From a virus: 64,000 nucleotides of DNA. A program made the position numbers and the translations under genes. The DNA is taken from IMG/VR virus record IMGVR_UViG_3300045988_094874, positions 1 to 64,000 of that record. The stretch is one strand, 5' to 3'. This document shows positions 1,032 to 2,261 of this stretch, piece after piece. Each line of letters begins with the position of its first letter. Positions within the stretch are counted from its first letter, which is position 1. The notes under the pieces are model-generated. The model ran no database searches, had not been told where the DNA came from, and worked only from the letters and a program-made list of their open reading frames with translations.

Positions 1032-1430
1032 TCACTAAGAATTATATATTATATAAATGAATATTAATTATGCATATTATTAGTATCATATTCATTAGTA
1101 TAATTTATATACATACCACATGATACAACACCGCCGCACCGATACTGCAAGTATAACGATTTTTTGCCGTTTTGTCAACTAAAACACTACACTTTTTATT
1201 TTATGCATTTTACCCCTACTTTATGCACGAAATATCCAGAATTATGCATAAAACTAGTAAATTTAGTAGGATAAAGGGGTAAATATTATAGTTAGATAGA
1301 TAAATGAGTAATAAATCTATGTAACTAGGTATAAAGTATATGTAAGAGACCATAGAATAGTATCAGTTTTTCTTAAAAATGTTACATAACTTTTCTTAAA
1401 CTAATTTATTATGCTATAATATCCTTCAAG

Positions 1431-1562
1431 TTATCCACAGAAAGGGCTAGTTATCCACAGTTTTTGTTACAAATAAATTACAAAATTGAGTTATGTTACT
1501 TTTTGGTAACATTGTGAAATTGTGAAATGGCTTAGTGACGGGCTTTATAAGAGTTATCCACA
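1431..1562. promoter_or_regulatory. cluster of three perfect DnaA boxes (TTATCCACA at 1431-1439, 1451-1459, 1554-1562) plus tandem TTGTGAAAT x2 (1513-1530); candidate replication origin or DnaA-titration element
   Basis: exact 9-mers read in sequence, all same orientation, in an ORF-free AT-rich region (AT-rich stretch 1040-1130 upstream). Confidence 0.5.
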
Positions 1563-1828
1563 GGGTAATCATAGAGAATGCACAAATTTAATATTATACT
1601 AAAATATCTATAAATAAATTATACTATATTCATTTTGAAAAATTGGAGGCTATTTTAGTACCAGAAAAGGGTCACAGGATAACCCTTCAACTCATACTTG
1701 CGTATTCGTGGAAGGTTATCTTGGAAGACTAACGCAGACTTCCTCGCAGGGCTCGTTGTCTTTGTTATATTACTAAGCTCATAATACTCCTCGCAGAGCT
1801 CGTAGTATTATTTCACTAAGTAATATAC

Positions 1829-1990
1829 AGCCCTGTGTCATTATCTGAGCCTTGAAGAGGGGAAGAGGTCATTCTTGTATAACTTAGTATCATACAATCC
1901 CCTGTGTCTTATTAGGACCTTATAGTAGTGCTTTAGTGGCTTCTAAGAGCTCATAGAAAGCCCTGTATTCAATTTTAGTGTCTTCTGAGG
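1829..1990. repeat. three iteron-like imperfect direct repeats (core CCCTGTGTC-TTAT..GAGCC/GGACC) with about 65-bp periodicity (starts near 1832, 1899, 1962)
   Basis: repeat units aligned by eye; non-coding region. Confidence 0.4.
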
Positions 1991-2073
1991 GGTATTATAC
2001 TGGAGAGATAAAATAGAGCCTTATATGAGCTAATTTATAGCTCGTTTAGTACCAGAGATAGGATTATTCTCTC

Positions 2074-2150
2074 AGCTCATTGCATTCGCAGAGAATAATA
2101 TTCTACTAATATTCATAGATATACTCGCATAGCTCATTGCATTCGCAGAA
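2074..2150. repeat. 19-bp direct repeat AGCTCATTGCATTCGCAGA x2, 58 bp apart
   Basis: exact repeat seen at 2074-2092 and 2132-2150. Confidence 0.5.
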
Positions 2151-2261
2151 TAGCTCGTATATCCATTCATAAAGTAGAATACACAGAACTTAAAAATACG
2201 ATTTAAATAGTACCTTCGGTACAAGGGATACGAACTTAATAAATCCTTATGTACCAAGGCA

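Follow-up and report, generated by a model that had tools for sequence, protein, structure and literature searches.

In the replication origins of P1 (oriR), F, pSC101 and RK2, an AT-rich stretch is bordered by one or more perfect DnaA boxes, repeats are found nearby, and host DnaA assists the element's own initiator. Here we analyze a cluster of three perfect DnaA boxes in an uncultured, virulent-looking Streptococcus siphovirus. The cluster lies in a block at positions 950-1850 of the window, that is, the whole stretch of DNA analyzed: positions 1 to 64,000 (64,000 nucleotides, nt) of IMG/VR record IMGVR_UViG_3300045988_094874. The window represents approximately the whole circular map of the phage, about 64 kb, with about 175 nt between 64000 and 1 in relatives. 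An earlier reading of its sequence (the original prediction) placed a candidate replication origin at 1040-2260 and likened it to a bacterial oriC or to a phage origin that recruits host DnaA. We infer that the block is a docking site for host DnaA, exclusive to this clade of Streptococcus siphoviruses.

Several other described systems bear on the function of such a site. The origin of lactococcal c2-type phages (Ceduovirus) is a non-coding, transcribed sequence between the first two early promoters; it has been proven experimentally, uses host proteins only, and occurs as three unrelated sequence types among close relatives (PMC7150918). In lambda, footprinted DnaA boxes lie downstream of pO, and DnaA-stimulated transcription activates the origin (PMC3985674). 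About eight DnaA boxes are found in a conserved untranslated region of T5-like phages, a region proposed to stop DNA injection; the authors argue that these boxes are not an origin (bioRxiv 10.1101/866236). The basal unwinding system (BUS) of bacterial origins consists of tandem boxes at most 3 bp apart, followed by at least three DnaA-trios within 16 bp (PMC8287927). In addition, several genome reports have predicted phage origins from DnaA boxes with Ori-Finder (PMC11512268, PMC10713843).

The DnaA boxes and the block around them

The sequence TTATCCACA occurs at 1431, 1451 and 1554, always on the + strand, as originally predicted, and the three copies turn out to belong to one exact 12-mer, AGTTATCCACAG, repeated directly within 135 bp (1429-1563) with gaps of 11 and 94 bp. 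Six perfect copies of TTATCCACA are present in the window against 0.70 expected, a number that none of 100 shuffles reached. The other three, at 21722 (+), 27132 (-) and 28460 (+), had likewise been listed correctly as isolated boxes; they lack the AG/G flanks of the clustered copies. These flanks are the same as those of R1 and R4, the strongest boxes of Escherichia coli oriC (R1 reads GTTATCCACAG and R4 AGTTATCCACA), and because of this the three clustered sites are almost certainly true high-affinity DnaA boxes. Boxes with one mismatch are also in excess in the whole window (47 vs 18 expected), an excess that was given no weight because it follows the purine/G skew of the coding strand, such boxes lying mostly on the non-coding strand.

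Conservation in relatives, which had been suggested as a check on the region, speaks for the boxes. The close relatives comprise about 20 IMG/VR contigs, 62-65 kb long and all derived from human samples. In every relative carrying the block the three boxes are kept at spacings of 20 and 103 bp, the sole exception being L209, the most divergent member, whose box 3 reads TTGTCCACA with one mismatch from the consensus. Variability was counted in 18 distinct, independently ascertained relatives, picked via flanking proteins. The boxes are invariant in these 18 sequences: variable positions number 0 of 36 in the boxes vs 129 of 855 (15%) elsewhere in 950-1840 (one-sided Fisher p=0.003). The block as a whole is 93-100% identical among relatives, compared with about 90% for the flanking genes, and is unchanged even beside an allele of the upstream gene that is 47% identical. 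The adjoining 1850-2950 is variable among relatives, with extra repeat units inserted. The boxes are real and functional-looking DnaA sites under selection.

The block stands in a stretch free of open reading frames (ORFs) that extends over 2.6 kb (910-3539) rather than the 1.3 kb first described. No long ORF appears in the region when TGA, TAG or TAA is read through, which excludes genes hidden under another genetic code. Just upstream of box 1 is a predicted promoter with an extended -10 element, kept in all relatives including L209. It has no -35 element and was hence overlooked by a consensus scan. With transcription predicted to start near 1427, boxes 1 and 2 would span roughly +3 to +31. 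The least stable DNA of the window, as judged by nearest-neighbour stability at every scale from 30 to 400 nt, flanks the boxes on both sides (1041-1070, 1584-1643 and 1022-1421), and 1043-1102 is also among the least stable 60-nt stretches. The AT-rich tract noted upstream (1040-1130) was confirmed, with a GC content of 22% over 1001-1100; it holds the least stable 30-mer, 1041-1070. On the downstream side, TTATCCACA points toward 1584-1643 in the same way as R1 points toward the DNA unwinding element of E. coli oriC, and 1580-1639 is nearly invariant, with one variable site.

Comparison with known systems and possible roles

The locus resembles c2-type origins in being non-coding, with no ORF or ribosome-binding site, in lying between two predicted promoters (1412-1420 and 2877-2905) near the divergence of early and late genes, and in that c2-type ori sequences differ completely between close relatives, which is paralleled here by a clade-specific box block. 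It differs from them in showing no sequence similarity to the oris of c2, bIL67 and 923 (blastn in near and distant modes, 50,697 phage records), in its DnaA boxes, which are absent from the ori features listed in PMC7150918, and in the one gene that separates the region from the point of divergence. Moreover, this phage has its own polymerase and helicase-primase, and the origin role here is a predicted one. Like plasmid and P1-type origins, it has perfect DnaA boxes beside an AT-rich stretch and repeated motifs nearby, but these repeats are irregular, of several kinds and 0.2-0.9 kb away (GGTGAATAG-type repeats are 0.8 kb off), and no initiator gene adjoins them, the initiator-like gene standing 8 kb off and the gene next door being an orphan.

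The core and flanks of the boxes match R1/R4 of bacterial oriC and the boxes point to unstable DNA, whereas the gaps of 11 and 94 bp, the number of boxes (three only), DnaA-trios at background level and the lack of a dnaA/dnaN context are unlike oriC and its BUS. With the iss region of T5-like phages the locus shares a large, conserved untranslated region rich in repeats and palindromes, consensus DnaA boxes, and a virulent phage with its own replication genes; the T5 boxes, however, form pairs 3 bp apart that are embedded in inverted repeats (IRC/IRD) within the left terminal repeat, whereas the boxes here do not lie inside inverted repeats, the host group differs, and no terminal repeat or fixed end is detectable. 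As at lambda pO/pR, where transcription activates a nearby origin, DnaA boxes lie just past a promoter, but the lambda boxes are weak matches and the lambda origin lies inside the O gene with iterons for O protein, whereas here the boxes are perfect and no comparable initiator is adjacent.

The best fit among these is a DnaA-dependent, transcription-assisted origin, because the boxes are placed between a promoter on one side and the most unstable DNA on the other, within a gene-free region bounded by two early promoters. We tentatively regard the block, at somewhat less than an even chance, as a transcribed origin, or an auxiliary to one, that is specific to the clade, depends on host DnaA and is of the c2 or plasmid kind. 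Host DnaA would bind the phased boxes at 1431, 1451 and 1554, as their identity to proven boxes suggests. Oligomerisation of DnaA would then open the unstable 1584-1643 on the 3' side of box 3, presumably aided by transcription from the 1412-1420 promoter reading straight through the boxes. The phage primase-helicase (11112-12812) and family-A polymerase (15457-19503) would take over, possibly joined by the winged-helix initiator-like protein (9764-11122). As in an oriC-type origin, three consensus boxes are clustered within 135 bp and an AT-rich candidate unwinding element (1584-1643) starts 21 nt 3' of the anchoring box, on the correct side. The original interpretation stands in part: R1/R4 flanks, invariance and orientation to unstable DNA favour it, while the region, lacking tandem boxes, does not look like a bacterial oriC and the cluster is absent from sister lineages. 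GC skew had been proposed as a further check; the region lies 1.5 kb from the divergence of early (+) and late (-) genes, which is the cumulative GC-skew minimum, but arguments from skew and from gene orientation are confounded with the direction of transcription.

The last point is one of several that weigh against an origin at the boxes. Only three boxes are clustered, and no tandem boxes at most 3 bp apart exist in the region. Each box is followed by a minimal run of three triplets with a central A, non-canonical and not of the GAT type; an equal DnaA-trio run follows 31% of positions drawn at random from the region, so that this is background and the test has no discriminating power in such AT-rich DNA. 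An initiator-like protein, a helicase-primase and a polymerase are all encoded by the phage itself. The AT-rich DNA at 1040-1130 may instead be part of a small RNA gene on the - strand. The phage family has no cultured relative, and blastn searches of 50,697 phage records, near and distant, gave no DNA-level match.

Further evidence of this sort comes from sister lineages, which were reached via homologues (32-37% identity) of the gene at 3822-4769 and consist of contigs of 57-65 kb from human oral samples. Their layout is the same: terminase and RuvC genes leftward, one gene of about 315 amino acids (aa) rightward, a gene-free stretch of 0.8-1.2 kb, and then early genes. Compared with the window, their initiator-like protein is 22% and their primase-helicase 48% identical, and their first rightward gene is not homologous. 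The gene-free stretches of the sister lineages contain no DnaA box even with one mismatch allowed, and no DnaA-box cluster exists in 26 sister loci (284 kb). Because sister lineages with the same genes have no box cluster, the shared replication machinery has no need for DnaA boxes, and the box block reads as a clade-specific acquisition, an add-on and not the ancestral origin.

A second site in the region, at 2330-2600, is at least as good an origin candidate as the boxes, which likewise tells against them. It consists of two to four copies of TTGGTGAATAG, each usually after TTTTTAAT; the last copy of TTGGTGAATAG is followed by a CT-rich gap of exactly 32 nt, by TTTTAATCGACC (2549-2560) and by a T-rich stretch. 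The element with its 32-nt spacing was found in 8 of 8 lineages examined and in 23 IMG/VR contigs (48-64 kb), in about 40 distinct versions (other copies are at about 6050-6230 in L178, at about 7200-7350 in L180, and in L182-L207). In the window it lies 0.8 kb downstream of the boxes, and across the family it takes the same position, past the first + gene and before strong early promoters. Its persistence beside proteins that are now only 22-48% identical makes it probable that the element is recognized by some conserved factor of host or phage. The element is possibly an origin, a priming site or a packaging site.

That this element is the family origin, and the box block a separate inserted cassette of a small RNA gene, promoters and boxes with another role, is nevertheless a reading to which we give little credence. 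It would account for the same spacing in all eight lineages and the 23 contigs beside proteins that are 22-48% identical or not homologous at all, for the constant position, and for the island of 97% identity (2551-2600) that the element forms within a variable stretch. A conserved RNA hairpin was sought in 2330-2600, and no consistent one was found on either strand; together with the repeats and the strand asymmetry, this points to a site that acts at the DNA level. However, a role in packaging, transcription or regulation would suit the element just as well, the initiator-like protein falls to 22% identity while the repeat stays constant and is therefore an unlikely reader of the repeats, and the invariance of the boxes would be left unexplained.

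The adjoining promoter allows a role without replication. DnaA may repress or stimulate rightward transcription, which runs toward the 2330-2600 element and the early genes, and thereby tie early expression to the replication state of the host. The promoter at 1412-1420 adjoins the boxes and both are conserved; in the lambda precedent, DnaA boxes lie downstream of pO and DnaA stimulates the pR-driven activation of ori-lambda (PMC3985674, refs 18, 33, 43). In several unrelated viral loci the same box pair adjoins a promoter or gene start, for example upstream of a TTGACA-17-TATAAT promoter (L131/L145) or just before an antirepressor-like gene (L074/L138), and a clade-specific, dispensable element suits a regulatory add-on. 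Such control is unlikely to be the whole role, as there is no gene or ribosome-binding site for 2.1 kb past the promoter, which is itself a consensus prediction only, and as box 3, 125 nt downstream beside the most unstable DNA, would be needless for a simple operator. Dispensability in sister lineages is also what is expected of an accessory takeover device, in line with the sequestration of DnaA that the original prediction also allowed, in which hundreds of high-affinity boxes on multiplying genomes would soak up host DnaA, like datA of E. coli or the box clusters of Bacillus subtilis, so that new initiation on the host chromosome would be shut down or DnaA-regulated host genes altered to the gain of the phage. 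All three boxes are of the optimal R1/R4 type, and Firmicute initiation is sensitive to free DnaA, deletion of six non-origin DnaA-box clusters leading to early initiation in B. subtilis (PMC5295017); the same phased pairs occur in at least 75 unrelated viral lineages, some of them near anti-restriction or other early genes. Yet three boxes per genome make a small sink, the placement after a promoter and before unstable DNA and the conservation of the whole 900-bp block would go unexplained, and no description of such a phage strategy was found in the papers searched; a sink seems improbable. Far less probable still is an injection stop of the T5 type, in which membrane-bound DnaA would catch the boxes on entry and pause genome entry after the first gene. 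In favour of it, the first early gene is followed here by a conserved, gene-free region rich in repeats that holds the boxes, and the large, highly conserved T5-like region likewise has about eight boxes, repeats and palindromes (bioRxiv 10.1101/866236), but the present boxes are direct repeats 11 bp apart and not pairs 3 bp apart in inverted repeats, no sign of fixed genome ends or of a terminal repeat exists near the region, and the T5 model is itself a proposal.

The phased pairs just mentioned are widespread. The exact pair GTTATCCACAG-N9-GTTATCCACAG is present in more than 119 IMG/VR contigs, which include at least 75 lineages related neither to this phage nor among themselves and ranging in GC content from 28 to 68% (loci L038-L155). 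Extra boxes in these loci are mostly 11-12 or 19-23 bp apart, that is, one or two helical turns, their flanks prefer AG...GG, and some loci have 9-11 boxes (L040, L141, L144). Among the listed pairs, 62 of 75 are intergenic, the median gap between flanking ORFs (at least 100 aa) being 864 bp, and 21 of 45 are at divergent junctions, a placement that speaks for the origin reading. The genes beside them are mostly unknown, with a few methylases, ArdC, SAM lyase, primases, SSB and antirepressor. No description of phage DnaA-box arrays as a general device was found in the literature. Phased arrays of optimal R1/R4-type boxes might represent a portable cassette that phages have acquired repeatedly and that captures the host initiator, a generalization that we consider rather unlikely. 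For the present locus it would mean, with similar reserve, that the cassette was inserted beside the older family-wide element as an accessory to use, sense or disable DnaA and not as the ancestral origin. The listed pairs are on average not beside AT-rich DNA, a further point against an origin at the boxes.

Other placements of an origin, and another nature of the region, were also considered. Many Firmicute phages carry their origin within such a gene, but a location in the initiator-like gene was ruled out here, as no iteron array exists in or next to that gene (9600-12900 scanned). A plasmid-type Rep was rejected for the first + strand gene (1..909), an orphan of which only four protein clusters are known and whose AlphaFold model is unusable (pLDDT 37.6). 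A homologue search with this gene for more distant relatives reached the same clade only. The original prediction would have given way to a packaging (pac/cos) site, for which no support was obtained; as a pac/cos site or genome end the region was rejected on the grounds that contig ends of relatives are scattered over the circular map, only two of them breaking inside the region and at different places. A copy of known phage or plasmid DNA was ruled out by the blastn searches against phages (near and distant modes) and by a distant-mode search against plasmids, which gave no match.

Other features of the region and the genome

The features are collected in Table 1.

Table 1. Features of the gene-free region and replication genes of the window
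Feature	Position	Strand	Remarks
Terminator-like hairpin, bidirectional	911..929	.	Stem of 7-8 pairs, preserved in 12 relatives; a T-rich tail on either strand
Candidate structured non-coding RNA, about 235 nt	905..1143	-	Predicted: promoter 1178-1150, terminator 929-911, RNA fold z = -5.5
Three successive hairpins (959-990, 991-1047, 1048-1103)	959..1103	.	99-100% conserved; DNA fold z = -6.2
Predicted sigma-70-type promoter TTGACA-17-TATACT, leftward	1150..1178	-	11/12 consensus positions
Three TTATGCA(T/C) motifs at 1201, 1221, 1242	1201..1250	+	20-21 bp spacing, between divergent promoters; tentative
Predicted extended -10 promoter TGcTATAAT, rightward	1412..1420	+	Read from sequence; kept in all relatives
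DnaA box 1, AGTTATCCACAG	1429..1440	+	Sequence match; invariant in relatives
DnaA box 2, AGTTATCCACAG	1449..1460	+	20 bp from box 1
Tandem ATTGTGAA x2.2, 8-nt unit	1511..1528	+	Between boxes 2 and 3; conserved among relatives
DnaA box 3, AGTTATCCACAG	1552..1563	+	103 bp from box 2; TTGTCCACA in L209
AT-rich, easily melted stretch, candidate unwinding element	1584..1643	.	Least stable 60-mer of window; starts 21 nt 3' of box 3
Invariant block with direct repeat TCCTCGCAG(G/A)GCTCGT at 1741, 1788	1720..1809	+	0 variable sites in 1720-1799
Variable-number repeat zone, head motif (A/G)CCCTGT(G/A)T	1823..2016	+	150-200 nt more units in most relatives
35-nt direct repeat including exact 19-mer AGCTCATTGCATTCGCAGA	2058..2149	+	19-mer copies at 2074, 2131
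GGTGAATAG-type repeat element	2330..2600	+	Conserved across whole phage family; outside the originally predicted origin
GGTGAATAG-type repeat GGTGGATAG	2353-2361	+	
GGTGAATAG-type repeat GGTGGAAAG	2456-2464	+	
GGTGAATAG-type repeat GGTAAATAG	2508-2516	+	
Predicted strong early promoter TTGACA-17-(TG)TATACT	2877..2905	+	Exact tandem 23-mer directly upstream, 2810-2854
Winged-helix initiator-like protein	9764-11122		Rightward block
RepB-primase/AAA_25 helicase (primase-helicase)	11112-12812		Rightward block
Family-A DNA polymerase with intein	15457-19503		Rightward block

At the upstream end of the region, the hairpin at 911-929 terminates the first + strand gene and would do the same for the candidate - strand RNA, which has no ORF and no Rfam match. 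The hairpins at 959-1103 include the AT-rich tract and a 27-nt inverted repeat (I1); in L177 one compensatory change from C-G to U-A keeps the large stem, and variation is found only in the loop. Both hexamers of the leftward promoter are invariant among relatives, and three positions of its spacer vary. A known RNA family was ruled out by an Rfam scan of 850-3850, which gave no match even at E<5; the only Rfam-type match in the window is the tRNA-Cys at 62 kb. The TTATGCA(T/C) motifs are tentatively taken as weak DnaA boxes (one or two mismatches to TTATNCACA) or operator-like sites. The palindrome TTATGCATAA was rejected as an operator, as it shows no enrichment window-wide.

Of the repeats described originally, the tandem of ATTGTGAA exists but lies between boxes 2 and 3 instead of upstream of them, and the 19-mer AGCTCATTGCATTCGCAGA is duplicated as reported, with its second copy at 2131 and not 2132. 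The three iterons of about 65 bp at 1829-1990 did not hold up: the units have in common only a head of about 17 nt (ATA.A...CCCTGT.T), units 1 and 2 share about 30 nt, and Tandem Repeats Finder detected no array there. TCGCAG occurs four times in this region and nowhere else in the window. Related units of about 22 nt, CTGTGTCAT.ATCT.AGGC, are found at 1829-1912 (+) and 63749-63815 (-), in the two non-coding regions flanking the first early gene; their orientations are opposite, each pointing with the local genes, and they may be phage-specific promoter or regulator sites.

The promoter at 2877-2905 is followed by a conserved purine-rich leader of about 630 nt without an ORF (fold z = -2.4) and then by the first small gene at 3540; the leader is either a long 5' untranslated region or a non-coding RNA. 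Near-perfect palindromes of about 80 bp, AAAGTACAGATAATAC...GTATTATCTGTACTTT, are located at 8360-8436, 63663-63745, 63877-63953 and 63968-64000, where the end of the window truncates the last one. At the junction of late (-) and early (+) genes they form a cluster, one extra copy lying behind a peptidase gene, and their number varies among relatives. This cluster is another candidate regulatory or origin site.

The genes of the phage form a rightward block (1-28145) and a leftward block (64000-28159), the latter encoding terminase, portal, tape measure and lysins among others. Nothing in the 50,697 phage records matches the portal protein. The host is almost certainly an oral Streptococcus, on account of a phage LPXTG surface protein 60-74% identical to proteins of Streptococcus genomes and of GbpC/BspA adhesin domains in the tail. 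The LPXTG-anchored protein (13710-15203), with Big_8 and collagen-binding domains, is encoded inside the replication module; it has the look of a surface adhesin that this apparently virulent phage took from a host. The tail-region proteins at 31717-33438 and 33925-36168 have GbpC and BspA/antigen I/II variable-domain folds, which are domains of streptococcal adhesins, presumably reused for host recognition.

Insertions of the LAGLIDADG-type intein/homing-endonuclease class are present in the family-A polymerase gene and in that of a Sak4/AAA_24-like ATPase (24447-26291), the latter insertion giving rise to spurious 'terminase' matches in PHROGs. Directly upstream of the initiator-like gene, at 8441-9700, are four or five small tandem genes of about 70-90 aa, apparently paralogous (...GFPL.SPFGWYD...). 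The tRNA-Cys gene (62026-62098, -) overlaps by about 20 nt the start of a predicted HNH endonuclease ORF (62076-62798, -) upstream of the terminase genes; the start of this ORF has probably been called too far upstream.

Meaning for the phage family

If an origin or origin auxiliary of this kind is operating at the boxes, a virulent phage of Gram-positive bacteria would rely on host DnaA, or exploit it, in spite of having a polymerase and a helicase-primase of its own, which would give the host a point of control and possibly a route to resistance. The occurrence of the same phased pair in dozens of unrelated uncultured phages suggests a general phenomenon that is not yet systematically described. 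The element at 2330-2600 is a new, sharply defined cis-acting site of a common group of human oral Streptococcus phages without a cultured member. Within this group, the contrast between the clade with boxes and its box-free sisters amounts to a natural experiment that bears on the contribution of DnaA boxes to a phage replicon.

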